DNA of 64,000 nucleotides, from the NCBI GenBank assembly GCA_964623865.1, contig CAZUVX010000001.1:171593-235592 (forward strand), in the 5' to 3' direction. Origin of the DNA: an uncultured Spirochaetaceae bacterium (GTDB lineage: Bacteria; Spirochaetota; Spirochaetia; DSM-27196; PWMO01). How positions within the stretch are numbered: the first letter of the stretch is position 1; each line of letters opens with the position of its first letter. This document shows positions 1-45,829 of the stretch, piece by piece. The position numbers were made by a program, and so were the translations under genes. Under the pieces are notes generated by a model that saw nothing but the letters and a program-made list of their open reading frames with translations, searched no databases and was not told the DNA's origin.

Positions 1-1
1 C

Positions 2-637
2 TCCATCGGCGGGCCGATTATCGGTGTGGGTCGCTACATAGCCCAGGGTCTGACGAACCTGGACAAGGAGACCGGACAGGGCCTTCCCGCTCTCGACTGG
101 ACATACGGCGCCCACGGCATGATCGTCGAGGTCAACACCGAGACCGGCGAGTACAACATCCTGAAGATCGCTTCCGCCTACGATGTTGGAAAGGTCATCA
201 ACCCCCAGGCCGTGCGCGGCCAAGCCGTCGGCGGCATGATGCAGGGGCTGGGTACCGCCGTCTGCGAGGGCTACATCTACGACCAACAGGGACGCCTCTT
301 GAACCCATCCTTCACGGACAACAAGATTCCGACCGCGGCGGACCTGCCTCTCGAGGTCGAGGCCATTGCCGTCGAGACGGCGCAGCTGGACGGGCCCTAC
401 GGTGCCCGCGGCGTCGGTGAGCACTCCATGATCTCCGTTGCCCCGGCCCTGGGGAATGCAATACAGCAGGCCACGGATGCGGAGCTTACCCACATGCCTA
501 TCCGGTTCGAGGATGTCTGGCGGGCACTGAACAACAAGGTCCAGGTGGACAACTGGATCACGAAGAGCCCATTCGGTAGTTGCCGCTCCGCCCCGACCAT
601 GCAGAAGCACGGTCACAAGCATTCGGAGTCGGAGTAG
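2..637 (+). CDS. Xanthine dehydrogenase / aldehyde oxidase-family molybdopterin-binding subunit, C-terminal fragment (5' end lies outside the window)
   Basis: Reading frame is open to the left edge. GQAVGGMMQGLGTAVCE and GPYGARGVGEHSMISVAPALGNAI match the conserved C-terminal Mo-cofactor domain of XDH/AOX/CODH large subunits. Confidence 0.8.
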   Translation, partial: SIGGPIIGVGRYIAQGLTNLDKETGQGLPALDWTYGAHGMIVEVNTETGEYNILKIASAYDVGKVINPQAVRGQAVGGMMQGLGTAVCEGYIYDQQGRLLNPSFTDNKIPTAADLPLEVEAIAVETAQLDGPYGARGVGEHSMISVAPALGNAIQQATDAELTHMPIRFEDVWRALNNKVQVDNWITKSPFGSCRSAPTMQKHGHKHSESE

Positions 638-682
638 GTGCGGTCATGAGCACTGCACACGAGGATATTCCATAGTTCCGAA

Positions 683-722
683 GAGCCGCCTCCCGCGACG
701 ACGGGGGCGGCTCCTTTCTTCT
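683..722 (+). terminator. Rho-independent terminator after the XDH-family gene
   Basis: GAGCCGCC (683-690) pairs with GGCGGCTC (706-713), extended by CCC/GGG, followed by CTTTCTTCT. Confidence 0.7.
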
Positions 723-903
723 GGTCCGTATGGTTTGTACGGTAGCGCTTGCCTGTGAAGCCGGCGCGGGTCCCGGCGGGGACGCGAACCGGCGGGCTCG
801 CCTCCCGCAGAGGGAGACGAGAACGTAGGCGAGTTACCGCAAGGGGTCTAACTGGGCACGTCGCGTAGACTATACCCCATAACCCACCAGGGTTAAAAAA
901 TGG

Positions 904-932
904 TTGTGACCACGCAAAAGCCCAATTAGAAT
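904..932 (+). promoter_or_regulatory. Putative sigma70-type promoter of the nucleobase permease
   Basis: TTGTGA (904-909), 17-nt spacer, TAGAAT (927-932), in a locally AT-rich patch about 70 nt upstream of the ATG. Confidence 0.4.
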
Positions 933-934
933 AG

Positions 935-964
935 CCATAGGTCATTCCTGGAATGCACCTATGG
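935..964. promoter_or_regulatory. 30-bp near-perfect inverted repeat (candidate operator or leader hairpin)
   Basis: CCATAGGT-CATTCC-t-GGAATG-c-ACCTATGG. The arms are 14 bp with one 1-nt bulge. It begins 3 nt after the putative -10 box and ends 36 nt before the permease ATG. Confidence 0.45.
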
Positions 965-999
965 GTAACAAAACTTCGGAGGTTTGATCGGAGGTAGCT

Positions 1000-2547
1000 A
1001 TGAGTGATGCTCAAACTGGGCAGGGCGAACAAGTAGGTGGCTGGATCGTATATCCGATCGGCAGCAAGCCCAAGATGGGCATGGCGGTACTGCTGGGTAT
1101 CCAGCACTACTTGACCATGCTCGGGGCGACGGTTCTGATCCCGTTCATCGTGTTTGGTGCGTTCGAGTCCAACGGGATTCCCATGCCACAAGAAGCTTTG
1201 GCGCTGATCATTGCGACCATGTTCTTGACATCGGGAATCACCACCCTTATTCAGCAGTCGCGGATCGGTAACAGATTGCCCATTATCCAGGGAGGCTCCT
1301 TCGCCTTCCTCGGACCGATGTTTGCAATCGTCGGTATGGTTGCGGCCGACGGTCTCGGCTGGGAGGTGGGGATTCAGCAGGTCGCCGCGGCGATCATGTT
1401 TGCGTCCGTCTTCGAGATCATACTTGGCTATACCGGGCTGCTCGGGTACATCAAGCGGGTCATCACCCCCGTCGCGATTGCGCCCACCATTGCAATGGTG
1501 GCGCTGCCGCTGTACAGCACGGGTGCGCCGGCCATGGCGAGCAACTGGGTGATCTCGCTGATCGCGTTGCTTGCGCTGATAGTGTACTCGCAGGTGTTCT
1601 CCCGCCGTTCGAAGGTCTTCATGCTCTTCCCGGTACTGCTGGCCATCCTCACGGGGTGGATCGCAGCTATCCTGGGAACGCTCTTCGGCTGGATTCCGGA
1701 GGGTAACGCCGCCAACATGGCGGGGCAGGCCTTCCTGATCGGCGAAGCGCCGTGGTTCCAGATTCGGCCCATTGTGCCCTTCAAGTTCGGTGTGCCGACA
1801 CTGACCGGAATTACCCTTGCCGGGTCTCTCGGTATGCTCGCCGGCTACCTTGGGTCCATGGTCGAGTCGATCGGCGACTACTACTCCTGTGCGCGGATGG
1901 CGGAAGCTCCCGTGCCGACGGAGAAGATGATCTCCCACGGTCTCGGTGCCGAGGGTATCGGCTGCGCCATTGCAGGCTTCCTGCAGACCGGCAACGCCAC
2001 CACCTCGTACTCCGAGAACATTGGTGCAATTGGCCTGACGCGCGTTGCAAGCCGTCGCGTCGTGCGTGCCGGTGCAATCGTCATGGTTCTGCTGCCGTTC
2101 TTCGGCAAGTTCGCCGCTGCTCTTTCAACACTGCCTGAGCCGGTTCGCGGTGCGCTCTTCGTCGGTGTCTTCGGCATGATCGCATCGGTGGGACTGTCGA
2201 ACCTGCAGTACGTGAATCTGAACAATCCGCGGAACCTCTTCATCATCGGTATCGGCCTCTTCGCCGGTCTGACCTTCCCCGCGCACTTCGGTGCGACCCC
2301 GATCGACTGGTCGGACGCCGGTCAGTTCACCGGAACAATCGGCAGCATCATCGGGACGCTGCTGAGCACCGGTGTCGCCGTCACCGCCATCGTGACCATC
2401 CTCCTCGACAACATCCTTCCCGGGGCTACCAGGTCCGAGCGCGGTATGGACGTTTGGGAGAAGCAGGCTACTCAGGAAGCCTGGGACAAGGCCGAAGCCG
2501 AATGGGCCCAGATTCCCGTCGGCCAGATGCGCGAGGTCAAGTACTAG
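1000..2547 (+). CDS. Nucleobase:cation symporter-2 (NCS2, xanthine/uracil/uric-acid permease family)
   Basis: 515-aa ORF with GGAGG upstream of the ATG and many hydrophobic segments. NCS2-like motifs: GIQHYLTMLGATVLIP, IIQGGSFAF, ENIGAIGLTRVASRRV. Confidence 0.9.
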   Translation: MSDAQTGQGEQVGGWIVYPIGSKPKMGMAVLLGIQHYLTMLGATVLIPFIVFGAFESNGIPMPQEALALIIATMFLTSGITTLIQQSRIGNRLPIIQGGSFAFLGPMFAIVGMVAADGLGWEVGIQQVAAAIMFASVFEIILGYTGLLGYIKRVITPVAIAPTIAMVALPLYSTGAPAMASNWVISLIALLALIVYSQVFSRRSKVFMLFPVLLAILTGWIAAILGTLFGWIPEGNAANMAGQAFLIGEAPWFQIRPIVPFKFGVPTLTGITLAGSLGMLAGYLGSMVESIGDYYSCARMAEAPVPTEKMISHGLGAEGIGCAIAGFLQTGNATTSYSENIGAIGLTRVASRRVVRAGAIVMVLLPFFGKFAAALSTLPEPVRGALFVGVFGMIASVGLSNLQYVNLNNPRNLFIIGIGLFAGLTFPAHFGATPIDWSDAGQFTGTIGSIIGTLLSTGVAVTAIVTILLDNILPGATRSERGMDVWEKQATQEAWDKAEAEWAQIPVGQMREVKY

Positions 2548-2621
2548 TCGGCAGGTTCACGAACCCCCGACGCCGGGGTTGACGGGCGTCCACGCGTTGC
2601 GACGCGAAGGAATCACACGGC

Positions 2622-2664
2622 GAGGATATGGGGCCTTCGGGCCTCGTATCCTCGTTTTGGTTTG
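2622..2664 (+). terminator. Strong rho-independent terminator after the permease
   Basis: 14-bp stem (GAGGATATGGGGCC / GGCCTCGTATCCTC) closed by a TTCG tetraloop, followed by GTTTTGGTTTG. Confidence 0.8.
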
Positions 2665-2702
2665 AGCAATCATCCGAAATCCAAATAGGGACATCTGCAG
2701 CC

Positions 2703-3104
2703 ATGCACAAAGCCGTTCGATACGCTCTCATGGTGGTGCTGGCCATCCTGATGGTCGCCACCTTCTACATGATCTTCCTGGGGGCGGGGAATCCGAACTC
2801 CTTCATCCGGGCGGTTGTCGAGGACACATCCTACGATCTCCTCATAACCATTGGTCTCGGGGTACTGGTGGGGTTGGTCGTCCTCGTGCTCACCAGCCGG
2901 ACGAGCAGCCACCCTCTCGAGTACATGCTGGAGCAAAACCGGACCCACGTCGACGAATTGCGCGCCCAGGGTAGAGACGACGAGTACATTGCACGGGACT
3001 TTCTGAAAAGCGTCGGAATCAAGAACAGGTTCATCAACTGGCTCGCCCTGCGGCGGGTACGGAAAACGCTGAGGCGGATGAAGGCGGAGAGGTCCGAGGA
3101 CTGA
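2703..3104 (+). CDS. Small membrane protein, unknown function
   Basis: Two clear hydrophobic helices (ALMVVLAILMVATFYMIFLG; LLITIGLGVLVGLVVLVL) followed by a basic C-terminal tail. I used the ATG at 2703 because the track's ATG at 2628 lies inside the terminator stem. Confidence 0.55.
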   Translation: MHKAVRYALMVVLAILMVATFYMIFLGAGNPNSFIRAVVEDTSYDLLITIGLGVLVGLVVLVLTSRTSSHPLEYMLEQNRTHVDELRAQGRDDEYIARDFLKSVGIKNRFINWLALRRVRKTLRRMKAERSED

Positions 3105-3185
3105 AGGGAAGGAAAACGGCGGCGCCGCAGCTAAGGTGCCGACAGCGTTGGATGGGGGAGCGGCGCCACCGTGAAAGGTGCTGGG

Positions 3186-3923
3186 TCAGGCTTCCGCCTT
3201 CTCCGGAACGATCATCTTCTCGTTCTTCTCGATCAGCTCCTTCGGCGGATTGGGCTTCAACTCGGCGCGAGCAACCTGTTCGGGGTACTCGTCGCGGATG
3301 GTGAGCTCCCAGAGGTCACGGCGAAGGAGATAGACCTTCGCGCCGCCGAGCTCGTGCTGATACTCCGGCCACGGATAGGTGGGCAGCCCCATGTTGAGAC
3401 CCGCGAGCATCCAGCCGTTGTAGCTCTCGAAGGTCGCCCAGAACTCGTTGTTCTTGCACACCTCGAAGGCGTACCAGGCCTTGCTGTAGAAGAGAATCGG
3501 GCCGGCGTTGACCTGGCGCTTGAAGGCCATGGTGTGGAGGCTGATGTTGATCTCGTCGTCGCGCTTGCGGCCGTTGGCAATACCAATGGGCACGCCCTCG
3601 TCGAAGGCGACGAAGAAGTACTGGTCCTTCATACGGTTGCGCTTGATCGCCAGCAGCTCGGCATAAACCCGGGCGCCGACAATGTCGTAGAAGTCGTACT
3701 CGTTGTCCGTGTACTGCTTCACGAAGTTTGCGAGGGGATCCACTTCCTCAGGCTTGATCTCCCGAATCAGGATGTCCCGCGTGCTCCCGTCGCGGAGCGT
3801 AAGGGTAGAGTACATGGGCTCGAACTTGGGCAGCGTAGAGGGAACGGCGAACATGCCCTCCATCTTCTCCACCGGCAGGCGGTACTCGTCTTTCCGCGTC
3901 TTACACGGAACCTGTCGAATCAT
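3186..3923 (-). CDS. Hypothetical 245-aa protein (family not recognised; possibly GNAT-like fold)
   Basis: Balanced amino-acid composition (K/E/Y/F/N) and high GC3. AGGAGG lies 5 nt upstream of the ATG. The overlapping + strand ORF (3171-3971) is L/V/R/G-rich shadow sequence. Confidence 0.75.
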   Translation of the reverse strand: MIRQVPCKTRKDEYRLPVEKMEGMFAVPSTLPKFEPMYSTLTLRDGSTRDILIREIKPEEVDPLANFVKQYTDNEYDFYDIVGARVYAELLAIKRNRMKDQYFFVAFDEGVPIGIANGRKRDDEINISLHTMAFKRQVNAGPILFYSKAWYAFEVCKNNEFWATFESYNGWMLAGLNMGLPTYPWPEYQHELGGAKVYLLRRDLWELTIRDEYPEQVARAELKPNPPKELIEKNEKMIVPEKAEA

Positions 3924-3943
3924 AGAGGCCTCCTAAATGTCAG

Positions 3944-3960
3944 TTGGAATACAGTTCCAA
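3944..3960. promoter_or_regulatory. Inverted repeat TTGGAA-N5-TTCCAA (candidate TetR operator)
   Basis: Perfect 6+6 inverted repeat between the promoter at 3972-4000 and the RBS of the 245-aa gene. Related to the repeat at 7813-7831. Confidence 0.45.
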
Positions 3961-3971
3961 AAAGTATTTGA

Positions 3972-4000
3972 ATTGTACCCGCCCATGGTCTCGTTGTCAA
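3972..4000 (-). promoter_or_regulatory. Consensus-like sigma70 promoter of the 245-aa gene
   Basis: On the minus strand: TTGACA (3995-4000), 17-nt spacer, TACAAT (3972-3977). Confidence 0.6.
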
Positions 4001-4054
4001 TCTTCTTTCGTTAACATTTGCGCTGTGTGCGGAGTCGGTGCGACGGGAAGCGCC

Positions 4055-4663
4055 CTACTTGATCGTCCGGAGGATGCGGTTCACGAGGTGGGGTATATCC
4101 TCCTCCGTGAGCGGGTAGCGTTCCCAGGAGGCAACGAATCCCCAGATCGCTCCCCGCAGAATGTGGAGCATCTGCTCGGGAGGCAGTTCCCGGTTGATGG
4201 TACCCTCGTCTTGGGCCTTGTGAAGGTGATCGCGGAGGAGTTCGTTCGCGGTCCAGTACGCACTGAGGTAGGTGTTCAGGGCGTGGTACTCGTCTTCGAG
4301 GGGCTGCGACTCGAAGAGTGGGGAAACCTGGGTGAGCACAATGCGGATCAGCTCGAGATTGCGGTGATAGAATCGCAGGATGTGCGAGAGCATTTCATGG
4401 AGAGCACTCAGGCACGCGCGGTCCTTGTCGTCCGCACAACCCTGCAACGGGGTGAGATCGTACTCCAGCCCTTCGAGGAGGGCGTTCAGGATGTCGGGAA
4501 TCCCTTTGTAGTAGTAGTAGAGGGAGCTGGTATCGATGCCGAGGCGTGCCGCAATATCGGACATCTTCGCGCGTCCGCCGCGGCGGCGGAGGACTTCCTT
4601 GGCGATTTCGAGGATTTGAGCCTGCTTGGCGGCGGTACGCCGGCGGGACTTGCTGAGCATCAC
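4055..4663 (-). CDS. TetR/AcrR-family transcriptional regulator
   Basis: N-terminal helix-turn-helix AQILEIAKEVLRRRGGRAKMSDIAARLGIDTSSLYYYYKG followed by a helical C-terminal ligand domain of typical length (202 aa). Confidence 0.9.
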   Translation of the reverse strand: MMLSKSRRRTAAKQAQILEIAKEVLRRRGGRAKMSDIAARLGIDTSSLYYYYKGIPDILNALLEGLEYDLTPLQGCADDKDRACLSALHEMLSHILRFYHRNLELIRIVLTQVSPLFESQPLEDEYHALNTYLSAYWTANELLRDHLHKAQDEGTINRELPPEQMLHILRGAIWGFVASWERYPLTEEDIPHLVNRILRTIK

Positions 4664-4748
4664 GTCGTCGTCCGGCCGCCGCGGTGCGGCCGAGTCGGGG
4701 TTGTGGAACCGTCGTCGGAGTCAAGGTCTCGTATGCACATGGTTCCTC

Positions 4749-4784
4749 AGAGAAGCACGCCCCAAGGCGAGATGCCTCGGGGCG
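4749..4784 (-). terminator. Probable rho-independent terminator after the double-cyclase gene
   Basis: Minus-strand RNA CGCCCCGAGG-caucucg-CCUUGGGGCG (10 bp including one G-U pair) followed by UGCUUCUCU. Confidence 0.5.
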
Positions 4785-4850
4785 CGTACACTGCCTTTAC
4801 AGTTCGTAGACATCGGCGCCGGAAGGCGCCAATGCTCCTGCAAATCATGC

Positions 4851-6491
4851 TCAGCCGGTGTACTCCCAGACAATGAAGCGACCCCACATTGACTCCGCTT
4901 CCATGGCCTTGGGCATGTAGGCACCAATGTAGTAGCGACCGCTCTTCAGCTTGGCGATGTCTCCGGTGAGGTTCTCGGCGTGGACGATGCCGTGGGGGAA
5001 GAGATTGAGGTGCATGTCCTGATAGTACTCCGCGAGGGGATACATCTCGTCCCAGTCCTTGCCGAAGTCCTTCTTGAGCTTCTCGTTGGCAGCCTCGAAG
5101 GTCTTTGGGTGCCAGTTCCGCATGATGGTGTTCATGGGATGGTCGGCACTTACACAGTCGACGCCGATCCACTTGATCTTCTTGTTGATGGCCCATTCGC
5201 GGAAGTCCGCCGACGGACCCGGGTGCTCCACCATGTAGAGGAACTCGTTGTTGTCCGGGCTGTTCCAGCTGTACTTGTTCCAGCCGGTCTTGATGATCAG
5301 GATGTCGCCCTCCTTCACATCGACAACCGACTCGATCATGTCGGGTGTATACACGCTCGCACGGCTTACCTTGTCGGAGATGTCCGCCACGACGCCGGGA
5401 CCGACCCAGCGATCGAAGGGTACCCGGCCGATCGTGCGGCCGGCGGGGTAGAAGTGGGTTTCCCCGTCCATGTGAGTAGCAAGATGGATGCTGGCCTCAC
5501 AGATGGTCCCGTTCCGCCCCAGGCCGAACTGCTTCTGGCCGACGCGCTTGTGATACTCCACAACGAGGGGCTTGTAGTTGAGCCACTGCGGCGTGCACAC
5601 GCTGAAGGGGCTCGTCATGTCGTGCCGCTTCGTCTTCTTCAGGGCTCCGAAGAAGTCCTGGTCGCTCATGCCGTCGGGCGCGGTGTACGCCATGACGCGC
5701 GCCCACGCAGCCTCGGTTTCGACCATGGGAACCGGATCCGCGGCAATCCATGCACGCTTATTGGCGAGCTTGGCGACGTCCGCGCCAATGCTCTCGACGA
5801 AGACCAGATGCGCCTTGGGCACCTCCGTGTGCATGAGCTTGTAGTAGTCCTGCGGCGGGAAGAGATCGTCCCAACTCTTGCCCCACTCCTTCTTGGCCTT
5901 CTCCTCGGCTCGCTGGAAATCGGCGCCGTGGTAGTACCGTGTCGGGGTGTTCATGGGGTGCTCAATAGAGCCGCAGTCGACGCCGACCCACTTGAGCTTC
6001 TTCTTGATTGCCCACTCGAAGAATCCGGGGGCCGGACCGGGATGGCGAACCAGGTAGCCGAACTCGCTGGAGTCTTTCTGCTCCCAGGAGTACTTGCTGT
6101 AACCGGTGTAGATAACCAGGATGTCGCCCTCTTTGACGTCAACCTTCTTTTCGATCATCTCAGGGGTGTAGAGGCTGTAGTCGGAGACCTCGCCGGAGAT
6201 GTCGGCGACCACGCCCTCACCGGCCAGCTCTTCCAGGGGAATGTCGCTGACTTTCCGGGCTCCGGAGTGCCAGCTCGTCTCACCAACGAGGTGAGTGCCG
6301 ACGGTGTTGCTCCACTTAAGGATCTGACCGTTGGCGCCCTGACCGCCGAGGAACCCACCGGTGACGCGCTTGAAGAAGTGCACGGTGAGTGCCTGATCGT
6401 GGGGATGTGGTGGCGTGAAGATGCTCAGCGGCTGGGTGAGGTCGTAGACCTTCGCTTTGTCCAGGACATCGATGAAATCATTATTATTCAT
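4851..6491 (-). CDS. Fused tandem 'putative cyclase' (kynurenine-formamidase-like amidohydrolase) protein, 546 aa
   Basis: Two paralogous halves of about 270 aa: HPGPAPGFFEWAIKKKLKWVGVDCGSIEHPMNT versus HPGPSADFREWAINKKIKWIGVDCVSADHPMNT. The C-terminal half carries HLATHMDGETH, an HxGTHxDxPxH-like motif. Start set at the ATG at 6491, which is preceded by GGAGGAG. Confidence 0.85.
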   Translation of the reverse strand: MNNNDFIDVLDKAKVYDLTQPLSIFTPPHPHDQALTVHFFKRVTGGFLGGQGANGQILKWSNTVGTHLVGETSWHSGARKVSDIPLEELAGEGVVADISGEVSDYSLYTPEMIEKKVDVKEGDILVIYTGYSKYSWEQKDSSEFGYLVRHPGPAPGFFEWAIKKKLKWVGVDCGSIEHPMNTPTRYYHGADFQRAEEKAKKEWGKSWDDLFPPQDYYKLMHTEVPKAHLVFVESIGADVAKLANKRAWIAADPVPMVETEAAWARVMAYTAPDGMSDQDFFGALKKTKRHDMTSPFSVCTPQWLNYKPLVVEYHKRVGQKQFGLGRNGTICEASIHLATHMDGETHFYPAGRTIGRVPFDRWVGPGVVADISDKVSRASVYTPDMIESVVDVKEGDILIIKTGWNKYSWNSPDNNEFLYMVEHPGPSADFREWAINKKIKWIGVDCVSADHPMNTIMRNWHPKTFEAANEKLKKDFGKDWDEMYPLAEYYQDMHLNLFPHGIVHAENLTGDIAKLKSGRYYIGAYMPKAMEAESMWGRFIVWEYTG

Positions 6492-6507
6492 TACGTTGCT
6501 CCTCCTA

Positions 6508-7758
6508 TCAGGATGCGTATTTTTCGGCGAAGCGGCGCAGAGCCTTCTCAAAGCACTGCTGAGGCGCTTCCACCAGACCGGCCCCTACCTGACCGACGCC
6601 GGGCTCTCGGTGAGCAACACCGGTGTCGATGAAGGGCAGGGTGCCCGTCTCGATAACCTTGCGAATGTCGATTCCCGTCGGGGATCCGCGGAAGTCGAGG
6701 AACGGAATGGTGAAGGTGTCGTTCTCACCGACCGTAATCTCGTACATGGACTTGGTGCGGCGAATAGACTCCTGGACGTTACCGCCGACGAACTGAATGA
6801 TCGCCGGAGCTGCGGCAATGGCGAAGCCGCCGACGCCGTAGGTTTCCAGAATGGAGCTGTCGCCGATGTCCGGGTTGACGTCTTCCTTCGTGAAGCCCGG
6901 GAAGAGCAGGACGTCGGGTACCGCCGCGGGAGCGGTGAACCACTCTCCGTCGAGGCCGGAAACCTGGATCCCGAAGTCCGTGCCGTTTCGCGACATGACC
7001 GTTGCGATGGAACAGCCATCAATGCCGCGAATGGCGTCCAGGCTGCACTTTGCGCTGGACATTGCGAAGCCCAGGAAGGTGTGGATGTTCTCTTCCATGA
7101 AGCGCAGGACCTCGTGGGTCTCGGAGGGATCTTCCATGGTTTCGGCAATGTAGGGCGCGATGCGGGCGAAGAGAATGTAGGACGCTGCGCGGCTGCGGTT
7201 GTGGAGCTCGTCGCCCATGCCCAGTGCCTGGACCATGATGTTCTTGAGATCGAGCTCGCCGGCCTTGTTGATGGCGCGCTTGAGAACCGGATACTGCACG
7301 TTCTCGAGCCACTTCAGCCCCTCGATGACCTCTTCGGAGTAGGCGCCCATTCGGAGCACCTTGCCGATGCCCTCGTTCAGGGTGTTGTAGGCACGATTAC
7401 CGTTCTCCTTGTTCTCCGTGACAATGACCGGCATGGATGACGAGACAACGCCCGCCATGGGACCGACCGTATTGTGGTGGTGACAGGGGTCGAACTCAAT
7501 GTCGCCGGACTTCGCCAGCTCTTCGGCTTCCTCCGGGCTCTTCGCCAGCCCTTCGTAGATCAGCGCGCCGATTACGGCGCCCCGTTGCGGACCGCACATC
7601 CGGTCCCAGGTCACCGGCGGGCCGGAGTGCAGAATGAGGTTCTTCTTCATGCCGGGGATGACTTCCTCCGCCTTAGCCATGTCGACCCAGGTCGGCTTGG
7701 CGGCGAGGAGTTTCTTGAGACCTTGCTCATTTGCTTTGTCAATGTCGATGTTTGCCAT
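6508..7758 (-). CDS. DUF1116 (YlbE-like) protein
   Basis: LILHSGPPVTWDRMCGPQRGAVIGALIYEGLA, DPCHHHNTVGPMAGV and NRAYNTLNEGIGKVLRMGAY match my recollection of E. coli YlbE. Start set at the ATG at 7758, preceded by GGGAG. The stop lies 16 nt before the cyclase ATG. Confidence 0.85.
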   Translation of the reverse strand: MANIDIDKANEQGLKKLLAAKPTWVDMAKAEEVIPGMKKNLILHSGPPVTWDRMCGPQRGAVIGALIYEGLAKSPEEAEELAKSGDIEFDPCHHHNTVGPMAGVVSSSMPVIVTENKENGNRAYNTLNEGIGKVLRMGAYSEEVIEGLKWLENVQYPVLKRAINKAGELDLKNIMVQALGMGDELHNRSRAASYILFARIAPYIAETMEDPSETHEVLRFMEENIHTFLGFAMSSAKCSLDAIRGIDGCSIATVMSRNGTDFGIQVSGLDGEWFTAPAAVPDVLLFPGFTKEDVNPDIGDSSILETYGVGGFAIAAAPAIIQFVGGNVQESIRRTKSMYEITVGENDTFTIPFLDFRGSPTGIDIRKVIETGTLPFIDTGVAHREPGVGQVGAGLVEAPQQCFEKALRRFAEKYAS

Positions 7759-7778
7759 AGCTTTACTCCCTATTGTGC

Positions 7779-7806
7779 ATTGTAGACGCCATGAGCCATG
7801 TGTCAA
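7779..7806 (-). promoter_or_regulatory. Putative promoter of the DUF1116-cyclase operon
   Basis: On the minus strand: TTGACA (7801-7806), 16-nt spacer, TACAAT (7779-7784). Confidence 0.5.
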
Positions 7807-7812
7807 TTGAAA

Positions 7813-7831
7813 TTTGAAAGGACTTTTCAAA
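7813..7831. promoter_or_regulatory. Inverted repeat TTTGAAA-N5-TTTCAAA (candidate operator, centre of the divergent promoter region)
   Basis: Perfect 7+7 inverted repeat in an AT-rich island. It sits 6 nt from the -35 boxes of both divergent promoters. Confidence 0.45.
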
Positions 7832-7837
7832 CTCTCA

Positions 7838-7866
7838 TTGTCAAAGTCCGATTCCAGGGTTACCAT
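7838..7866 (+). promoter_or_regulatory. Putative promoter of fdrA
   Basis: TTGTCA (7838-7843), 17-nt spacer, TACCAT (7861-7866). This would give a GC-rich 5' UTR of about 110 nt. Confidence 0.35.
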
Positions 7867-7982
7867 GCTGAATGTGCGCCGGAACCGGGCATCCGCGGCG
7901 GACGCGCCGTCACCACGGCGGTCCGCGCCGGCGGGAAGACCTGAACAGGAGACATAGCGTCACCGGCGCAGAGGAGGAAGTC

Positions 7983-9530
7983 GTGAAGAAGATAGATATT
8001 CAGAAAGACTCTTATCATGACTCGGTATTCTTGATGTTGGTCAACAAGGAAGCAAAGGGCTTCGAGGGCGTAAACGACGCCGTCGTATCCATGGGAACGC
8101 CCATGAACCTGGAGATCCTTGAGAATCTCGGTTTCGACGTGAAGGACGTCACGCCGAATGACCTCATTATTGCCGTGGATGCTGAGAGCGAGGACGCCGC
8201 CGAGAAGGCGATCGAGGCGGCACATGAGGCGATCCGCAATAAGGCCTCCGCTTCGGAGAGCGAAGGGGAGTTCAACCCCGCATCCCTCAGCGGTGCCCTG
8301 CAGCAGCTCCCCGACGCCAACATGGTCATCATCTCGGTCCCCGGGGAGTACGCCGCCGACGAGGTGCGGAAGGCCCTGAACAAGGACCTCCACGTCATGC
8401 TCTTCTCCGACAACGTTCCCATTGAGGATGAGATCGAGCTGAAGAAGAGCGCCGGAGAGAAGGGCCTTCTCATGATGGGCCCGGACTGCGGCACGGCGAT
8501 CATCAACGGGAAGCCCCTCTGCTTCGCCAACGTCGTCAAGCGCGGACCCATCGGGATGGTTGCTGCGTCGGGTACCGGCCTCCAGGAAGTGAGCTGCGTC
8601 ATCGACGAGCGCGGCAGCGGCCTGACCCAGGCAATCGGTACCGGCGGGCGCGACCTCAAAGATGAGCGCATCGGCGGCGCCATGATGATCACCGGCATTG
8701 AAGCCCTCAGGGACGATGATGCCACCAAGGTGATCACGGTTGTGTCCAAGCCCCCCGTCGAAGCGGTGGCGGATAAGGTCATCAAGGCGCTAGAAGAGAC
8801 CGGCAAGCCCTGCGTCATTCACTTCATTGGGCTCATGGGGCAGAAGGATCGCGGGAACCTGCACTTCGCCGACAATCTCGAGGAAGCCGCCGGCATGGCG
8901 GTCGCCCTCGCGGAAGGCAAGGAGTACACCCCGACCACCTTCACCATTCCGGAGTCGGAGGTGAAGGCGATTGTGGAGCGGGAGACCAAGGGCATGTCCT
9001 CCGACCAGAAGTACCTGCGCGGCCTCTACACCGGAGGAACCCTGGCGGACGAGGCGGTCATTCTCCTGAACGACGAGCTCGGCGGCATCATGTCCTTCGA
9101 CTCCAAGGATCCCGACCTCGTGCTGAAGGATCCGCACGTCTCGGAGAAGCACACCATCGTCGACCTCGGCGAGGATGTATTCACCGTCGGGCGGCCGCAC
9201 CCGATGATCGACCCGTCTACGCGGGAGGAGAGGCTTCGCAAGGAAGGGGACGACCCCGAAGTGGCGGTGGTTCTGATGGACGTCGTTCTGGGATACGGAT
9301 CGCACGAGGATCCCGCCGGCGCAATGGTGGACGCCGTTCGCGAGGCGAAGGAGAAGGCGAAGAAGCGCGGCGGGTACCTGCCGGTTATCGCTTCCGTCAC
9401 CGGCACCATCGGTGACCCGCAGGATCTCGGCACGTCCCGGAAGACCCTCGAGGAGGCCGGCGTCGTGGTGATGCCGTCGAATTTCCAGGCATCCAAGCTT
9501 GCCCTCGAGATCATGAAGGCCCGGAGGTAA
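7983..9530 (+). CDS. fdrA: FdrA-family acyl-CoA-synthetase-like protein (SucD/CoA-ligase fold)
   Basis: Begins VVKKIDIQKDSYHDSVFLMLVNKEA. Internal GPDCGTAII and AASGTGLQEV resemble succinyl-CoA synthetase alpha and E. coli FdrA. GTG start chosen because GAGGAGGAAG lies just upstream. The N-terminal extension in the track is R/H/G-rich. Confidence 0.85.
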   Translation: MKKIDIQKDSYHDSVFLMLVNKEAKGFEGVNDAVVSMGTPMNLEILENLGFDVKDVTPNDLIIAVDAESEDAAEKAIEAAHEAIRNKASASESEGEFNPASLSGALQQLPDANMVIISVPGEYAADEVRKALNKDLHVMLFSDNVPIEDEIELKKSAGEKGLLMMGPDCGTAIINGKPLCFANVVKRGPIGMVAASGTGLQEVSCVIDERGSGLTQAIGTGGRDLKDERIGGAMMITGIEALRDDDATKVITVVSKPPVEAVADKVIKALEETGKPCVIHFIGLMGQKDRGNLHFADNLEEAAGMAVALAEGKEYTPTTFTIPESEVKAIVERETKGMSSDQKYLRGLYTGGTLADEAVILLNDELGGIMSFDSKDPDLVLKDPHVSEKHTIVDLGEDVFTVGRPHPMIDPSTREERLRKEGDDPEVAVVLMDVVLGYGSHEDPAGAMVDAVREAKEKAKKRGGYLPVIASVTGTIGDPQDLGTSRKTLEEAGVVVMPSNFQASKLALEIMKARR

Positions 9531-9533
9531 ATC

Positions 9534-9716
9534 ATGGCTTCTACGGAAAAGATTCAGAAGCTCTTCAAGAGCGATCTCAAAGCAATCAACATGGGACTGT
9601 CCTCCTTTGCGGACAACCTGAAGAACGAGAACACCAAGGTCGTCCACATGGCGTGGCGCCCGCCGGCAGGCGGCAACAAAGAGATGGGCGATCTTCTCAA
9701 GAAGCTCGGCATGTAA
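9534..9716 (+). CDS. 60-aa protein, unknown function, tightly linked to fdrA
   Basis: The ATG lies 3 nt after the fdrA stop, with GGAGG 6 nt upstream. Composition is protein-like (K/N/E/L-rich) and resembles the neighbouring real genes. Confidence 0.6.
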   Translation: MASTEKIQKLFKSDLKAINMGLSSFADNLKNENTKVVHMAWRPPAGGNKEMGDLLKKLGM

Positions 9717-9733
9717 CCGTGCGCGGCCGCGTA

Positions 9734-9784
9734 CCGTGACCGGCACGGCGCCGTGACTGCCACGACTCCGTGATCGCCACGGCT
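9734..9784. repeat. Three tandem 17-bp units, each an inverted repeat CCGTG-N5-CACGG
   Basis: CCGTGACCGGCACGGCG / CCGTGACTGCCACGACT / CCGTGATCGCCACGGCT, starting 18 nt after the stop of the 60-aa ORF. Confidence 0.7.
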
Positions 9785-9807
9785 CCGCAGTCGGCCGCGT
9801 GCCGCGC

Positions 9808-9839
9808 GAAGGCCCGGAGGGACACCACCCCGGGCCTTC
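9808..9839 (+). terminator. Strong hairpin, possible terminator of the fdrA operon
   Basis: GAAGGCCCGG (9808-9817) pairs perfectly with CCGGGCCTTC (9830-9839) around a 12-nt loop. There is no clear U-tract. Confidence 0.4.
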
Positions 9840-10023
9840 GCTGTGTGGCGGCCGCGTCTGCGGCAGACATCCCTCCCTTCGGCGACCGGGAATGCACCCC
9901 GTCGCCACCGCCCACGCAGACAGCAGCGAAGTACGTTGTGGCTGAGCCCCCGTCCCTGCTACGGTGGTGCCCATACCGGCAGCGCCGTCCATCTGAAGCG
10001 CTGTCCATGTAAAAGGAACACCG

Positions 10024-10302
10024 GTGTCCGAGGATCAGGAAAACGGCCGCGACCGCCTGGCGGAGCTTGAAGAGAACTTCCGGCGCAGGAAGAGAAACCG
10101 CACTCAGCTCTACTGGATGAAGTACAATCCCGTTGCCGACTACAAGTGGGACCTGGTCGACGCACGGGAGGATGTCGAGTGGATGATTGCGGAGATCAAG
10201 CGCCTCCGATCGGAGCTCGCCATGTACAGGGAGCTCACGGAGGAGCTGAAACGACAGATCCGGCAGGAGATCGGCGGCCTTTGGGGTGAGGACGAGCAAT
10301 AA
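10024..10302 (+). CDS. Hypothetical 92-aa coiled-coil protein
   Basis: GTG start with AAGGA 8 nt upstream. Charged heptad-like C-terminus (IAEIKRLRSELAMYRELTEELKRQIRQEI). No family recognised. Confidence 0.5.
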   Translation: MSEDQENGRDRLAELEENFRRRKRNRTQLYWMKYNPVADYKWDLVDAREDVEWMIAEIKRLRSELAMYRELTEELKRQIRQEIGGLWGEDEQ

Positions 10303-10317
10303 CCGTGGAGTTCAGAA

Positions 10318-10365
10318 CGGCGTCCGCGACGGCGTCGCCGGCGGCGTCCGCGACGGCGTCGCCGG
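10318..10365. repeat. Perfect 24-bp tandem duplication
   Basis: CGGCGTCCGCGACGGCGTCGCCGG occurs twice in tandem between the convergent stops at 10302 and 10377. Each unit contains the hairpin GCGAC-ggc-GTCGC. Confidence 0.8.
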
Positions 10366-10376
10366 TCGGCATTGAC

Positions 10377-12056
10377 CTAACTGGTGAACGCCCCCATGCT
10401 TGCGGATGAAACCATCTGAGCGTACTTGTACAGGGCGCCGCGCTTGTACCGCAGCTCCGGCGCCTTCCACGCCTTCCGGCGACGCTCGAGCTCTTCGTTG
10501 GAAACGTCCATGGAGAGCTCCGCCTTGTTGCTGTCAATAGTGATCGTGTCGCCGTTTTTAACCAGGGCGATCCCGCCGCCGACCTGCGCCTCCGGGGCGA
10601 CGTGGCCGACCACCATTCCGTGGCTTCCCCCGGAGAAGCGACCGTCCGTGATGAGGGCGACATCCCGAAGGAGGCCGGCCCCGGCAATCGCCGAGGTGGG
10701 CGCCAGCATCTCGCGCATACCCGGGCCGCCTTTCGGTCCCTCGTAGCGAATCACGACGACATCTCCCTTGACCACACCGCCGTTGAGGATTGCGTCGAGC
10801 GCCTCCTCCTCGTTGTTGAAGACCCTCGCGGGTCCGGTGTGAACCACCTCGCCGAGGCCCGTGGTCTTGAGGACCGCCCCCTCTTCCGCAAGGTTGCCCC
10901 GGAGGATCACGAAAGGCCCCTGCTTCTTGGCCGGGGCGCTGAGGGGAAAGACCACCGCCGCGGAGAAGTCGGGCTCTTCCACGCGCGCGAGGTTCTCTTC
11001 CAGGGTCTTCCCGGTCACGGTGCGGCAGCCACCGTGGAGACGGCCGTCGTTCAAGAGGTGTTTCATGACCGCCTGCACACCGCCGACGTTGTACAGATCC
11101 TCCATGACGTACCGTCCCGCCGGTTTCATGTCGGTGAGGGTGGGCGTCTTCGCGCTGAACTCGTTGAAGTCGTCGATGGACAGCTCCACGTCTACCTCAT
11201 GGGCCAGTGCCAGAAGATGGAGGACCGCGTTCGTGGAGCCGCCGAGGGCCATGACAACCGTCATGGCGTTCTCGAAGGCCTCTCGAGTCATGATGTCCCG
11301 CGGTCTTACATCGTTCACAATTAGGTGGTGCAGAGCCTCCGCGGAAGCGATCATGACGTTGTCGCGCTCTTCGAACACCGCCGGCACGGAAGCGTTGCCC
11401 GGCACGCTCATCCCAAGCGCTTCCATGGCCGCCGCCATGGTGTTGGCGGTATACATGCCCCCGCAGGCGCCGGGGCCGGGGCAGGCGGCGCACTCGATTG
11501 CGTGGCGCTCCTCCTCGGTTATGTGCCCCTTGCTGTAGGCGCCCACCGCCTCGAAGGCGGAGACAATATCGACCGGTTTGCCCTCATGATGACCGGGACG
11601 AATGGAGCCCCCGTAGACGAATACGGAGGGGACATCCGCCCGGGCGAGGCCCATGACGGTTCCTGGAATGGTCTTGTCGCACCCGCCGACGCCCAAGAGG
11701 GCGTCCATCTGGTGCCCCAGAGCGTCCAGCTCAACGATGTCGGCAATGGTGTCGCGACTGATGAGAGATGCCTTCATCCCTTCGTGACCCATTGCCATGC
11801 CGTCGGTAACGACGAAGGTGTGAAAGCTCACCGGCATGACGCCGAGCTCTTTGAGGCGTTTCTTCGAAATCTCGGCAATCTCAGCCAGGTGAACGTTGCA
11901 GGGGCTGACGTCGCTATCTGCGGTAGCAATGCCGACAATCGGCTTACCAAAATCCTCGTCGGTGAAGCCCACGGCGCGAAGCATGGCGCGGTTGGCCGTC
12001 CTGGCAACGCCTCCGGTCATGGTTACGCTTCGCGTGTTCAGGCCTTTCTGCGTCAT
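10377..12056 (-). CDS. ilvD: Dihydroxy-acid dehydratase
   Basis: 559 aa. [31 protein letters not shown] and [16 protein letters not shown] are typical IlvD/Edd motifs. Confidence 0.95.
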
Positions 12057-16789: not shown

Positions 16790-17043
16790 CAGAAATGCAC
16801 AAAAAAATCGGGTAAATTTGCAGTCAGTACTTAGAAGGCTTCAAAACTGTACTTCACGAAGACGTAAATCTGTGAGCATTCCGCCGGAAACCCCAAAAAC
16901 GGCCAAACGTGAACGCGAAATGGCGTCGGGTCACTGCAAGCATATGCGTATCGTATACGTTACCGCCGTTCTATTGCGCATCTGCACCTTCCCCGGGCAT
17001 GCGTGTTGTGATAGTCTGCCGGTCTTCTGGAGGAAATCGGTAC

Positions 17044-18375
17044 ATGGAATCGACGCTCAGCCGGGGAGGGGTGTCTCAGAGGCGCATTTTTCTCACCTAT
17101 CTTCCCCTTGCCGCCATGTGGATCATGATGGGGATAGAGCAACCCGGCCTCAACGCGGTCATTGCGCGCATGTCGGATGCCCCGATCCAGCTCGCCGCGT
17201 TCGGCGTCACCTTTGCCCTGGCCCTCGTCGTTGAGAGCCCCATTATTCAGATGCTCTCCGCCGGTACCGCCGTGACCTACGATCGGCGCCACTACCGCCG
17301 GCTCCTGAGGGTCATGCACTTCTTCGCCCTCACCCTGACGACCCTGCATATCATACTCGCGATCCCGCCGATCTACGATGCGCTCATGCGCAACGTTGCG
17401 GGGGTGCCGGAGCGCCTCATCGGGCCGAGTCGTGAAGCCTTCACCTTCATGATTCCCTGGGCGGCCGCGGTGGGGTATCGCCGCCTCTGGCAGGGGGTGC
17501 TCATCCGTCACGGCCGCGCAAAGGTCGTCCCGATTACCATGGTGGTCCGACTCGTAGCAACGGGGCTCGGGCTGGTGCTGGGATACTTCTTCGATCTTGC
17601 GCAAGGTGCAACGGTCGCTGCGGCATCGATTATCCTCGGCGTCGTAGCCGGCGCCGTTGCGTCCTACCTCTACGTTCGGCCCGTGGTGAAGGGCCACCTG
17701 CCGGAGGTATCCGAGCAGGAGCTCATGAGCTACGGTAACTTGCTCCGGTTCTATCTTCCCCTTGCTGCAACGTCGGTTATGGTTCTTGCGTCGCGTCCTA
17801 TCATCACCGTGGGTATTGCGCGATCTCCCATGGCAATGGAATCTCTGGCCCTCTGGCCGGTCCTGGACGCCTTCAACTTCCTCCTGCTTTCTCTCGCTCT
17901 GGCTCTGCAGGAGGCCGTCATTGCCCTCTTGCGCACCAAGGAGGATCTCAGGCAGTTGCGGCGCTTCACCCTCCGCCTGGCCGCCGTCCTCGCGGTGGTG
18001 TACTTCGCCGTGGCGCTCCTGCCGCTTCGTGATCTCTGGTTCCTTCATGTCGCGGGGCTCACTCCGGAGCTCGTGGCCATGATTCCGATCCCGCTCCTGA
18101 TAATCGCCGTCTTCCCCAGTCTCGGGAGCTTCACGGCCCTCTTTCGCGGCATCCTGGTGCAGCAACAGCGCACCCCCCGAATCACGAAGGGAATGGCCTA
18201 TCACGTCGCGGCGCTCATCCTGATGCTTCTCGGAGGCGTCGCGCTCCTTTCACTCCCCGGCGTCGTTACCGCCGCGATCGCCTTCACGGGATCTCTCTTT
18301 GTCGAAGTAGTCTATCTTGGGTATTATTCCACCGAACGAAGGTTAGATTTGCCGGAGGGCTCCCATGCGCTCTGA
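17044..18375 (+). CDS. Polytopic membrane protein, MOP (MATE/MurJ/Wzx)-like exporter or flippase
   Basis: About 12 hydrophobic segments. Internal two-fold repeat: TYLPLAAMWIMMGIEQPGLNAVIARM versus FYLPLAATSVMVLASRPIITVGIARS. Start set at the ATG at 17044, preceded by GGAGGAAA. Confidence 0.7.
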   Translation: MESTLSRGGVSQRRIFLTYLPLAAMWIMMGIEQPGLNAVIARMSDAPIQLAAFGVTFALALVVESPIIQMLSAGTAVTYDRRHYRRLLRVMHFFALTLTTLHIILAIPPIYDALMRNVAGVPERLIGPSREAFTFMIPWAAAVGYRRLWQGVLIRHGRAKVVPITMVVRLVATGLGLVLGYFFDLAQGATVAAASIILGVVAGAVASYLYVRPVVKGHLPEVSEQELMSYGNLLRFYLPLAATSVMVLASRPIITVGIARSPMAMESLALWPVLDAFNFLLLSLALALQEAVIALLRTKEDLRQLRRFTLRLAAVLAVVYFAVALLPLRDLWFLHVAGLTPELVAMIPIPLLIIAVFPSLGSFTALFRGILVQQQRTPRITKGMAYHVAALILMLLGGVALLSLPGVVTAAIAFTGSLFVEVVYLGYYSTERRLDLPEGSHAL

Positions 18376-35471: not shown

Positions 35472-36068
35472 ATGGCTAAGATCAAGCTCACGAAGAACGA
35501 GCTCAAGCTTCAGAAGGATCGGCTCTCGCGATTCCAGCGCTACCTGCCGACCTTGCAGCTCAAGAAGCAGCAGTTGCAGATGGTGCTGCGCAAGGTCGAG
35601 CGAGAGGAGCGCGAGAAGGAGCGGGTGCGGCGAGAGTCTTATGAGACCATGCAGTCGTGGATTGCGGTTTTTGGGGAGCCCGTCGACCTGGAAGAGCTGG
35701 TCAAGATTCGTGAGTTGGTTACCTCGGGGGGCAACATCGCCGGGATCGATATACCGGTCTTCGAAAGCATAGCTTTCGAGGAGACTACCTGGGATCTCTA
35801 CCTGACGCCGTTGTGGATTGACGGCGGCATTGCCAAGATGAAGGAGATCATCAGTCTGGACGCGGAGATTCGGGTGCTCCGGGAGCAGCACGAACGCATT
35901 GCCGAGGAATTGCGAATCACCAGCCAGAGGGTCAACCTCTTCGAGAAAGTCATGATCCCGGAGACGCAGGAGAACATCCGCCGGATCCAGATCTACCTGG
36001 GGGATCAACAGACCGCGCAGGTCGTGCGCGGGAAGTTTGCCAAGCGCAAAGTGGAGAGGAGGGCATAG
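35472..36068 (+). CDS. atpD: V-type ATP synthase subunit D
   Basis: Begins KIKLTKNELKLQKDRLSRFQRYLPTLQLKKQQL, the typical subunit D N-terminus. Confidence 0.9.
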   Translation: MAKIKLTKNELKLQKDRLSRFQRYLPTLQLKKQQLQMVLRKVEREEREKERVRRESYETMQSWIAVFGEPVDLEELVKIRELVTSGGNIAGIDIPVFESIAFEETTWDLYLTPLWIDGGIAKMKEIISLDAEIRVLREQHERIAEELRITSQRVNLFEKVMIPETQENIRRIQIYLGDQQTAQVVRGKFAKRKVERRA

Positions 36069-36072
36069 CCAC

Positions 36073-39442: not shown

Positions 39443-42298
<2,856 letters not shown>

Positions 42299-45200: not shown

Positions 45201-45829
45201 CCAGCAGGGGTTGTCCTCTCCCTGGGTCGAACGCGAAGAGGAGGAGCTTCGCCCGGCGAGTGCTCGAGGAACCGCGTCATACGAGTTGGACCCGTTGCCG
45301 CTGTGGAAGAACCGCGTTACTTTTGATGCGACGGCTTCGACAACGGTTGAGGCGAATCTTCAGCGCTTTACCGAAAGCAGCCTCACCTTGCGGGCCGGGT
45401 TGAACTTTGCCGTTCATGAGTTTCTGGAATTGTCCTTCAACTCGACCTCGCGGAACGACTTCCTCTATCAATACATCCCGGCGCTCGCGGAGCGAGTGGA
45501 TCGCCGGGTGCGAAACCCCTTGGTCGATGTGGCGCGGTCCTTCAACTTCTTCAACCCCGAGGATCGGGAGGCTTCGTTCTTCAACCTGCAGTCCCTCTCC
45601 GTTGAGGCGACACACCGCCTGGGCGACTGGGACCTGGTTCTCGCGTATTCCGCGCGACCGGCGCTCTCGCAGGACGTTTCCCCGCCCCGGTACGAATGGG
45701 ATTCCCGGTTCTCGGTGGTGGTTCAGTGGCGGCCGCTCCCGGAGTTACGGAGTGAAGTCTCCTATGAGGATGAGGAGCTCCAGTATCGTACCGGGGAATA
45801 GCGCGGCGCTTCCGGGTGTCGGCGTCGGC

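Follow-up and report, generated by a model that had tools for sequence, protein, structure and literature searches.

Positions 2 to 9716 of a 64-kb stretch of DNA from an uncultured Spirochaetaceae bacterium (the whole stretch is called the window here, and coordinates are those of the window unless a locus is named) hold a compact set of genes on both strands. With a probability of roughly 0.45, we read this region as the Spirochaetaceae version of a widespread and uncharacterised catabolic cluster of anaerobes, which would encode the breakdown of a nucleobase, probably of a pyrimidine by an oxidative route that conserves energy. The set comprises the end of an XDH-family molybdenum hydroxylase, an NCS2-family permease, a conserved 245-aa protein, a TetR-family regulator, a tandem ("double") cyclase-family hydrolase and two proteins, AllG (DUF1116) and AllF (FdrA), whose Escherichia coli counterparts belong to a carbamoyltransferase. 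Every gene listed for the region in an earlier note on this DNA was found in place (Table 1), and the family assignments held in hidden Markov model searches (XDH Mo subunit, NCS2, TetR, cyclase twice, DUF1116 and FdrA). Pfam scans covered about 50 open reading frames (ORFs) of the window, and the nine proteins of the region were scanned at E <= 0.01.

The genes form a conserved unit, in which AllG and the cyclase are the tightest pair. A scan with one genome per species detected double-cyclase relatives in at least 594 genomes, mostly of Anaerolineae and other Chloroflexota, with further hosts in Caldisericota, Synergistota and Spirochaetaceae and one metagenome-assembled genome labelled Myxococcia. 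Gene counts were made on the 80 best double-cyclase loci. In 79 of them AllG immediately precedes the cyclase, and AllF is encoded in 65. The co-occurrence of double cyclase, DUF1116 and FdrA, which the earlier note proposed to survey, holds across phyla. The FAD, FeS and Mo subunits of the XDH-family enzyme are present in 73, 70 and 68 loci, respectively, CoxG in 52, an NmrA-like reductase in 43, and the NCS2 permease and the 245-aa protein in 39 each. The TetR protein was found only in the window and in its closest relative, a locus from a different Spirochaetaceae species (L008; 1 of the 80), and as judged from this distribution it is a lineage-specific regulator.

Anaerolinea thermophila UNI-1 (AP012029.1, cluster at 604,644-626,317; L005) shows the order 245-aa gene, AllF, AllG, double cyclase, XDH FAD/FeS/Mo, CoxG, NCS2, NmrA and two small proteins. 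The 245-aa-family gene of this strain, beside AllF, is broken by a DDE_Tnp_1 transposase into fragments of 84 and 182 aa (L005, 4877-6529); a near-identical Logan contig (L006) has it intact, at 241 aa. Behind the A. thermophila cluster comes a second, paralogous set of XDH genes for FAD, FeS and Mo subunits (L005, 19980-21674), which hints at two successive hydroxylations. Among double-cyclase loci of at least 8 kb, a sub-clade (15 of 70) has a CN-hydrolase (amidase/formamidase-like) between AllF and AllG, and 14 of the 70 have a dicarboxylate-type family III CoA-transferase just upstream of AllF. In one Chloroflexota locus (L023, 6181-7718), AllF is separated from the CN-hydrolase/AllG genes by an insertion of a DNA methyltransferase gene and a putative restriction-endonuclease gene, likely a mobile restriction-modification pair. 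The Synergistota loci L089 and L091 (2578-6684) carry DsrE/DsrH-like proteins, a polyferredoxin and an aldehyde:ferredoxin oxidoreductase beside the permease and the AllG-cyclase-XDH genes, together with XdhC, MobB and MoCF maturation genes.

An additional 80 loci with a single-domain cyclase came from a metagenome scan, and single- and double-cyclase loci of at least 8 kb (38 and 70, respectively) were compared, with no correction for phylogeny. CoxG occurs in 1 of the 38 single-cyclase loci versus 52 of the 70 double-cyclase ones, and the NmrA-like gene in 0 versus 41. MmdA shows the opposite trend (8 of 38 versus 2 of 70), and OAD beta recurs with it in the 8 single-cyclase loci. Tracing the 245-aa family through further phyla led to several more relatives. 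The gene order of one of them, a Halanaerobiales contig (L096), begins with a uracil-permease-like NCS2 protein (393 bits), PucR, AllH, an mmdA-type carboxyltransferase (899 bits), OAD gamma, a biotin carrier and the sodium-pump OAD beta. It continues with the 245-aa protein, AllF, an AllG with the N-terminal tail described below (tail-AllG), a single cyclase, carbamate kinase and XDH FAD/FeS/Mo. The AllF, AllG and XDH Mo proteins of L096 are 53-54% identical to those of the window (AllF 53%), and its carbamate kinase (arcC, 436 bits versus a cut-off of 358) directly follows the cyclase gene. Locus L095 combines XDH, a cytosine-deaminase-like amidohydrolase, a decarboxylase set of the L096 type, AllF, tail-AllG, cyclase and the 245-aa protein. 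In L094 the 245-aa gene is accompanied by the decarboxylase genes, by two sets of XDH genes and by an ABC transporter of the Bmp type (basic membrane protein family). In six single-cyclase loci (L119, L123, L135, L166, L171 and L174) the cyclase comes directly after the MmdA to OAD-beta genes, often with the 245-aa gene and with no AllF/AllG between, and the cyclase therefore has two alternative tight partners.

Proteins of the cluster

In E. coli, FdrA, YlbE and YlbF (AllFGH) are the oxamic transcarbamylase, whose activity needs the AllH subunit and which is encoded beside the carbamate kinase AllK (Kim and Kim 2024, PMC11326118). After this 2024 demonstration, DUF1116 is now called "oxamate carbamoyltransferase subunit AllG" in Pfam (PMC11326118). 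The AllG of the window is 45% identical to the E. coli protein and matches the solved structure 3CLQ at E 1e-119. AllF, with the Pfam domains HMA_AllF_N, CoA_binding and Ligase_CoA, aligns with E. coli AllF at 41% identity across 577 columns, the 60-aa ORF behind it included. The start of FdrA had been placed at 7872; the actual start is the GTG at 7983, preceded by a GGAGGA ribosome-binding site. The reported 16-nt gap is correct, as AllG ends at 6508 and the ATG of the cyclase is at 6491.

The 60-aa ORF, described in the earlier note as a novel micro-ORF, is a detached AllF/AllG tail. It aligns to positions 500-554 of the FdrA model (555 positions), lies in the AllF frame one codon past the TAA stop, and the full-length AllF proteins of A. 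thermophila and E. coli align through this in-frame stop. AllF is split in the same way in L008, with TAG instead of TAA and an identical ribosome-binding site and ATG, and independently in L040 (spacer of about 100 nt, 67-aa ORF), and is continuous in sixty other loci. A search using the peptide matched only free proteins of 58-60 aa, the one of the window being named "fdrA domain protein" at NCBI. A search for AllG homologues among 1.8 billion representative proteins recovered many of about 473-476 aa, which have 60 extra N-terminal residues with the tail motif ..VNxGLxxF....DWRPPAGG.. (the peptide is 56% identical to the N-terminus of L096 AllG), and many AllF-AllG fusions of about 1000 aa. 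The tail is therefore a portable module, occurring as AllF C-terminus, AllG N-terminus, fusion linker or free microprotein, and this portability would fit a bridging role between AllF and AllG. Relative to AllF, the AllG and cyclase genes of the window have the opposite orientation. The nearest relatives carry tail-AllG, and the 60-aa peptide is therefore probably a leftover of this inversion.

One locus (L007, 6925-9969) encodes a single AllF-AllG fusion protein of 1014 aa. In another protein (P0290, 781 aa, high GC) tail-AllG continues, via an apparent frameshifted stretch, into an NmrA-like reductase, and the NmrA-like gene therefore follows AllG outside Chloroflexota clusters too. We also looked for AllG-cyclase fusions as evidence of a complex; among the 150 best AllG representatives there were none, only AllF-AllG and tail-AllG fusions.

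The two halves of the double cyclase are 45% identical to each other (E 7e-84). The metal-binding signature of the family is HxGTHxDxPxH plus a His and a Glu further downstream. The C-terminal half keeps the HxxTHxDxxxH motif, with H336, H340, D342, H346, H504 and E506 invariant in the family alignment. At the corresponding positions the N-terminal half has T63, H67, V69, S73, F231 (manual numbering) and E233, and this altered motif sequence is itself conserved. The protein is about 65% identical between Spirochaetes and Chloroflexi, and the orthologous single-domain cyclases of L095 and L096, which share 42-45% identity with either half, carry SNH(I/L)GTHLDGExHF and IIHAE. We read the double cyclase, from its alignment, as a fused pseudo-dimer with one presumably catalytic and one non-catalytic half. 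Its solved relatives are distant in sequence (1R61/3KRV, isatin hydrolase and kynurenine formamidase; best E 3e-7), and Foldseek matches were to 3KRV, isatin hydrolase and kynurenine formamidase (E 1e-8 to 1e-5). No active-site geometry was taken from the AlphaFold2 (AF2) model, in which the pLDDT is below 50 over both motif segments.

In agreement with the earlier note, neither DUF2877/AllH nor carbamate kinase was found in the 64-kb window, either by tblastn with the E. coli and L096 proteins or by Pfam over its roughly 50 ORFs. AllH occurs in 2 of the 80 double-cyclase loci, both times at the locus edge, and in 2 of the 70 double-cyclase versus 8 of the 38 single-cyclase loci; only the extra degenerate cyclase domain anticorrelates with it. 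Carbamate kinase is linked to none of the 80 double-cyclase loci and to none of the 108 loci of at least 8 kb. The 245-aa protein and the cyclase were each tried as a divergent AllH and rejected (hhalign probability 0.1 for both). It had been suggested that the 245-aa protein and the micro-ORF take over the positions of DUF2877 and carbamate kinase. This does not stand, as L096 has the 245-aa protein alongside both AllH and carbamate kinase, and the micro-ORF is a piece of AllF/AllG.

The in-frame stop between AllF and its tail, together with the lack of AllH and carbamate kinase in the 64-kb window, could suggest that the split FdrA and its missing partners mark a decayed, non-functional remnant. 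This is very improbable. The split is kept in L008 with another stop codon and the same ribosome-binding site and ATG, it arose independently in L040, free homologues of 58-60 aa exist, and most double-cyclase loci are also without AllH and carbamate kinase. Moreover, all ORFs are intact and have a high third-position GC, which marks genuine genes in this window (GC of about 60%).

The 245-aa protein, previously considered an orphan, has homologues in many anaerobic phyla (1043 at E <= 1e-3), some of them named N-acetyltransferase and two carrying PF00583; one (in L093) lies in an unrelated context. Sequence searches returned no solved structure for it. An AF2 model built from 20 sequences (pLDDT 81.6) gave 99 PDB matches at E <= 1e-3 with Foldseek, and the top ones listed are GNAT acetyltransferases (E of about 1e-5), with a TM-score of only 0.4-0.6. 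A GNAT (acyl-CoA N-acyltransferase) fold is therefore predicted. At the GNAT acyl-CoA-binding motif (Q/R-x-x-G-x-G/A) the protein has a non-canonical R-x-x-x-x-G-A, and the invariant polar residues of the family include NGR, ISLH, ESYNG and QHELGGA.

A candidate pathway and its rivals

The Mo subunit, of which the region holds the C-terminal part, has a full length of 816 aa on the source contig, where genes for a FAD subunit (FAD_binding_5) and a 2Fe-2S subunit (Fer2/Fer2_2) lie directly upstream. This is the composition of a three-subunit XDH or Mo-hydroxylase (Mo-pterin, 2x[2Fe-2S], FAD). The best solved relative of the Mo subunit is 4-hydroxybenzoyl-CoA reductase (1RM6).

From family membership and gene context we propose the following steps. 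A nucleobase would be taken up via the NCS2 permease, and the three-subunit hydroxylase would add an oxo group to the ring. The double cyclase would then open the cyclic amide hydrolytically, with the metal site borne by its C-terminal half, and AllF/AllG, as an enzyme of the oxamate-carbamoyltransferase type, would cleave the N-acyl-ureide into carbamoyl phosphate and a dicarboxylate mono-amide. The 60-aa peptide would be the detached bridging module of this enzyme, and the degenerate cyclase domain may stand in for AllH in the complex. ATP would be made from carbamoyl phosphate by a carbamate kinase encoded elsewhere in the genome, and the mono-amide might be handled by amidase, CoA-transferase and decarboxylase where these are present. 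With uracil or thymine as the substrate, the route would run through (5-methyl)barbiturate to ureido(methyl)malonate, the cyclase-fold enzyme taking the role of barbiturase and AllF/AllG that of ureidomalonase. The GNAT-fold protein probably acts at the (methyl)malonyl or CoA end.

Pyrimidines seem to fit best because ureidomalonate and oxalurate are homologous acyl-ureas that differ by one carbon and because pyrimidine C4-C5-C6 gives exactly malonyl or methylmalonyl units. The gene context of the relatives also hints at pyrimidines over purines, given their uracil-permease-like, cytosine-deaminase-like and mmdA-type genes, and this argues against purine-derived compounds, which the earlier note had proposed alongside other ring amides. 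The ATP-yielding branch suggested in that note gains support from the carbamate kinase and AllH of L096; the window itself has neither.

The same three kinds of gene make a purine branch unlikely, as they fit pyrimidines and not the end products oxalate or glycine. In such a branch the substrate would be xanthine, urate or another purine, the cyclase would open a purine-derived cyclic ureide (a xanthinase-like product or parabanate) and AllF/AllG would act on oxalurate or an aryl-ureide, in the manner of the E. coli allantoin pathway. No allantoinase, allantoate, ureidoglycolate or xanthinase-pathway genes appeared in the neighbourhoods examined, in which no search was aimed at them. Purines are nonetheless suggested by the permease of the window, which scores best on xanthine-permease and NCS2 models (pbuX, 188 bits; uracil permease, 88 bits). 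Its substrate class is not assignable because all substrate-specific equivalog and subfamily models score below their cut-offs. In NCBIfam the Mo subunit likewise matches XdhA-type models best, below their cut-offs (best equivalog XdhA, 507 versus 780 bits), L096 has a PucR-family regulator, an oxalate CoA-transferase is among the best relatives of the CoA-transferase, and AllF/AllG are tied to oxalurate by experiment (PMC11326118).

AllF has CoA_binding and Ligase_CoA domains that resemble the succinyl-CoA synthetase alpha subunit, and a GNAT-fold protein is co-conserved with it. These features would be compatible with a different AllF/AllG chemistry, not that of a carbamoyltransferase, in which the cyclase takes the place of AllH and the acyl-ureide is turned into acyl-CoA and urea by means of either the CoA-binding fold in AllF or the GNAT-like protein, or with a non-nucleobase N-heterocycle as the substrate. 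The existence of decarboxylase/cyclase/245-aa loci without AllF/AllG points the same way, as does the linkage of carbamate kinase, which was seen in L096 only. We consider such a chemistry improbable, however, since AllF and AllG are 41-45% identical to an E. coli enzyme that makes carbamoyl phosphate (PMC11326118), the carbamate kinase of L096 directly follows the cyclase, and NCS2 permeases are nucleobase carriers.

Several observations weigh against the pyrimidine route that we prefer. The Synergistota loci keep AllG, cyclase, XDH, 245-aa protein and permease and have no AllF within 10 kb. Some single-cyclase loci with decarboxylase, cyclase and 245-aa genes have neither AllF nor AllG, and a single fixed order of the enzymes may therefore not hold. 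The XDH substrate is not assignable from sequence, the Mo subunit falling under every equivalog cut-off. The permease of the window belongs to another NCS2 subfamily than the uracil-permease-like one, to which it is only 26-28% identical, and its score is better with the xanthine-permease model. A linked carbamate kinase occurs in a single relative, and genes for carbamate kinase, AllH, decarboxylase, amidase and CoA-transferase are all absent from the window. In addition, the AllH contrast between single- and double-cyclase loci is confounded by phylogeny, and the scheme does not explain how the amide product would become a CoA ester, nor does it account for the roles of the GNAT-like and NmrA-like proteins. 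The pathway in its full form, namely, an unrecognised anaerobic, energy-conserving oxidative pyrimidine pathway whose remainder passes to a sodium-pumping decarboxylase, with the degenerate cyclase domain replacing AllH and the 60-aa peptide bridging AllF and AllG, is rather doubtful when taken as a whole.

Layout of the region

Table 1. Genes and putative regulatory elements at positions 2 to 9716 of the window
Feature	Coordinates	Strand	Evidence or remark
XDH-family molybdopterin subunit, C-terminal 211 aa	2-637	+	PF20256, E 6.7e-35
Promoter-like site upstream of permease: TTGTGA, 17 nt, TAGAAT	904-932	+	Consensus match only
Palindrome CATTCCTGGAATG	Just downstream of 904-932 site	+	Short palindrome
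NCS2/NAT-family nucleobase:cation symporter, 515 aa	1000-2547	+	PF00860, E 3.7e-67, model positions 3-387 of 389
Strong intrinsic-terminator-like hairpin after permease gene, 17-bp stem and T run	2619-2656	+	
Small membrane protein, 133 aa as called	2703-3104	+	Gene call; ORF from 2628 is 158 aa
Conserved 245-aa protein, predicted GNAT fold	3186-3923	-	No Pfam/NCBIfam match
Sigma-70-like promoter for 245-aa gene: TTGACA, 17 nt, TACAAT	4000..3972	-	11/12 consensus match
TetR-family regulator	4055-4663	-	PF00440, E 1.5e-6
Tandem ("double") cyclase-family metal-dependent hydrolase, 546 aa	4851-6491	-	PF04199, two stretches, E 1.2e-56, 191 bits
AllG (DUF1116), 416 aa	6508-7758	-	PF06545, E 3e-89
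Sigma-70-like promoter for allG and cyclase: TTGACA, 16 nt, TACAAT	7806..7779	-	11/12 consensus match
Palindrome TTTGAAAAGTCCTTTCAAA	7813-7831	-	Overlaps and extends just upstream of allG -35 hexamer
AllF (FdrA) without tail, 515 aa, divergent from allG	7983-9530	+	NF004760, 543 bits versus cut-off 433
Free-standing AllF/AllG tail module, 60 aa	9534-9716	+	Own ribosome-binding site GGAGGTAAATCATG

The earlier note had credited the cluster with consensus promoters of its own and with related operators. The promoters held up as sequence matches, two sigma-70-like sites agreeing with the consensus at 11 of 12 positions, and the region has 7 promoter-like sites versus 2.3 +/- 1.9 in shuffled sequences. 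The operators could not be verified: the palindromes differ, the similarity of the promoter regions lies mostly in the hexamers, and a shared TetR operator is not established. The hexamers of the allG promoter are conserved in L008, where the nearby palindrome is only partly kept. An Rfam scan of positions 1-10400 at E <= 5 yielded no riboswitch and only one chance-level small RNA match. Sequence reading places a terminator-like hairpin after the cyclase gene as well. From the promoters and terminator-like hairpins, the transcription units look like permease; small membrane protein; 245-aa gene; tetR; allG plus cyclase; and allF plus tail ORF. The hairpin after the permease gene overlaps the first ATG of the 158-aa ORF of the small membrane protein, and therefore the ATG at 2703 is probably the true start. 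Homologues of this protein adjoin the module in L008, L013, L014 and L002.

A 92-aa ORF between the tail ORF and ilvD (10024-10302) has no family match and no counterpart in the 80 related loci. Outside this region the window carries housekeeping genes, among them ilv/leu genes, pdxST, mutS2, uvrA, pgk, tpi and those of a V-type ATPase. No Pfam family matched three ORFs of 1195, 627 and 488 aa (42214-45801, 36037-37920 and 16909-18375, respectively) at E <= 1e-5; of these, the 627-aa ORF lies within the V-type ATPase operon and may be membrane subunit I.

Relation to known systems

The searchable literature held no description of the cluster, nor of a xanthinase link, anaerobic barbiturate metabolism or yah function that would cover it; subscription journals lay outside the search. 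Within this scope the gene set is not an already described pathway, in line with the earlier note. We regard it as a new combination of known enzyme families, probably a new pathway, in which the subunits of the AllF/AllG enzyme are arranged in a new way. The known route of pyrimidine breakdown in anaerobes is reductive. If the pyrimidine reading is true, the cluster would represent a new, oxygen-independent oxidative catabolic route in which energy is conserved twice, by carbamate kinase and by the sodium-pumping decarboxylase. It would concern abundant anaerobes (Anaerolineae of digesters and sediments, Caldisericota, Synergistota, Halanaerobiales and Spirochaetes), give the recently deorphanised AllF/AllG family a second physiological role, and provide functions for a very conserved cyclase subfamily and for a GNAT-like family of more than 1000 members. 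The cultured A. thermophila UNI-1 carries the cluster, which makes the reading testable now.

The cluster shares with E. coli allFGHK the AllF and AllG proteins (41% and 45% identity) and the conserved tail sequence of the AllF C-terminus, and L096 has AllH and carbamate kinase as well. Unlike allFGHK, the window lacks these last two, has the tail as a separate 60-aa protein and AllG translationally linked to a tandem cyclase, and has genes for an XDH-family hydroxylase and an NCS2 permease as partners instead of allB, allC, allD and allE. The known AllFGH contexts are allFGHK beside allantoin or biuret genes. A second E. coli cluster, yahEFGIJ, presumably consists of DUF2877, FdrA-like, DUF1116, carbamate kinase and cytosine-deaminase-like amidohydrolase genes. 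It is listed as still uncharacterised (PMC11551758). The combination of AllF-, AllG- and AllH-family genes with carbamate kinase and a cytosine-deaminase-like enzyme recalls L095 and L096, whereas the yah cluster has no XDH, cyclase or GNAT-like protein; the pathway proposed here may explain it.

With the PF04199 hydrolases (kynurenine formamidase and the Mn-dependent isatin hydrolase) the cyclase shares the fold and, in its C-terminal half, the HxxTHxDxxxH motif; it differs in being a highly conserved tandem fusion with one degenerate half, found directly after AllG in 79 of the 80 best loci. Among anaerobic purine pathways, a clostridial xanthinase pathway was reportedly described by Tong et al. 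in 2023. The reductive urate pathway uses XdhD, YgfK, SsnA, HyuA, YgeW, YqeA, YgeY and YgeX and releases carbamoyl groups through a carbamoyltransferase and carbamate kinase (PMC12507026). Both resemble our scheme in being independent of oxygen, with an XDH homologue acting first and hydrolytic ring cleavage; none of the enzyme families of the reductive urate pathway, in contrast, is found among the genes at 2-9716.

The closest parallel in proposed logic is the aerobic oxidative pyrimidine pathway of Rhodococcus, which Soong et al. are said to have worked out in 2001-2002 and which consists of uracil/thymine dehydrogenase, barbiturase and ureidomalonase. Neither barbiturase (AtzD/TrzD) nor an amidase-signature ureidomalonase matched any of the nine region proteins in the Pfam scan (E <= 0.01). 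Both routes would use a Mo/FAD/FeS hydroxylase, a ring-opening amidohydrolase and the cleavage of an acyl-ureide. The cluster described here would differ in having the non-homologous cyclase-fold hydrolase and AllF/AllG at the last two positions, in belonging to strict anaerobes and in the energy conservation implied by the carbamate kinase and sodium-pumping decarboxylase of its relatives.

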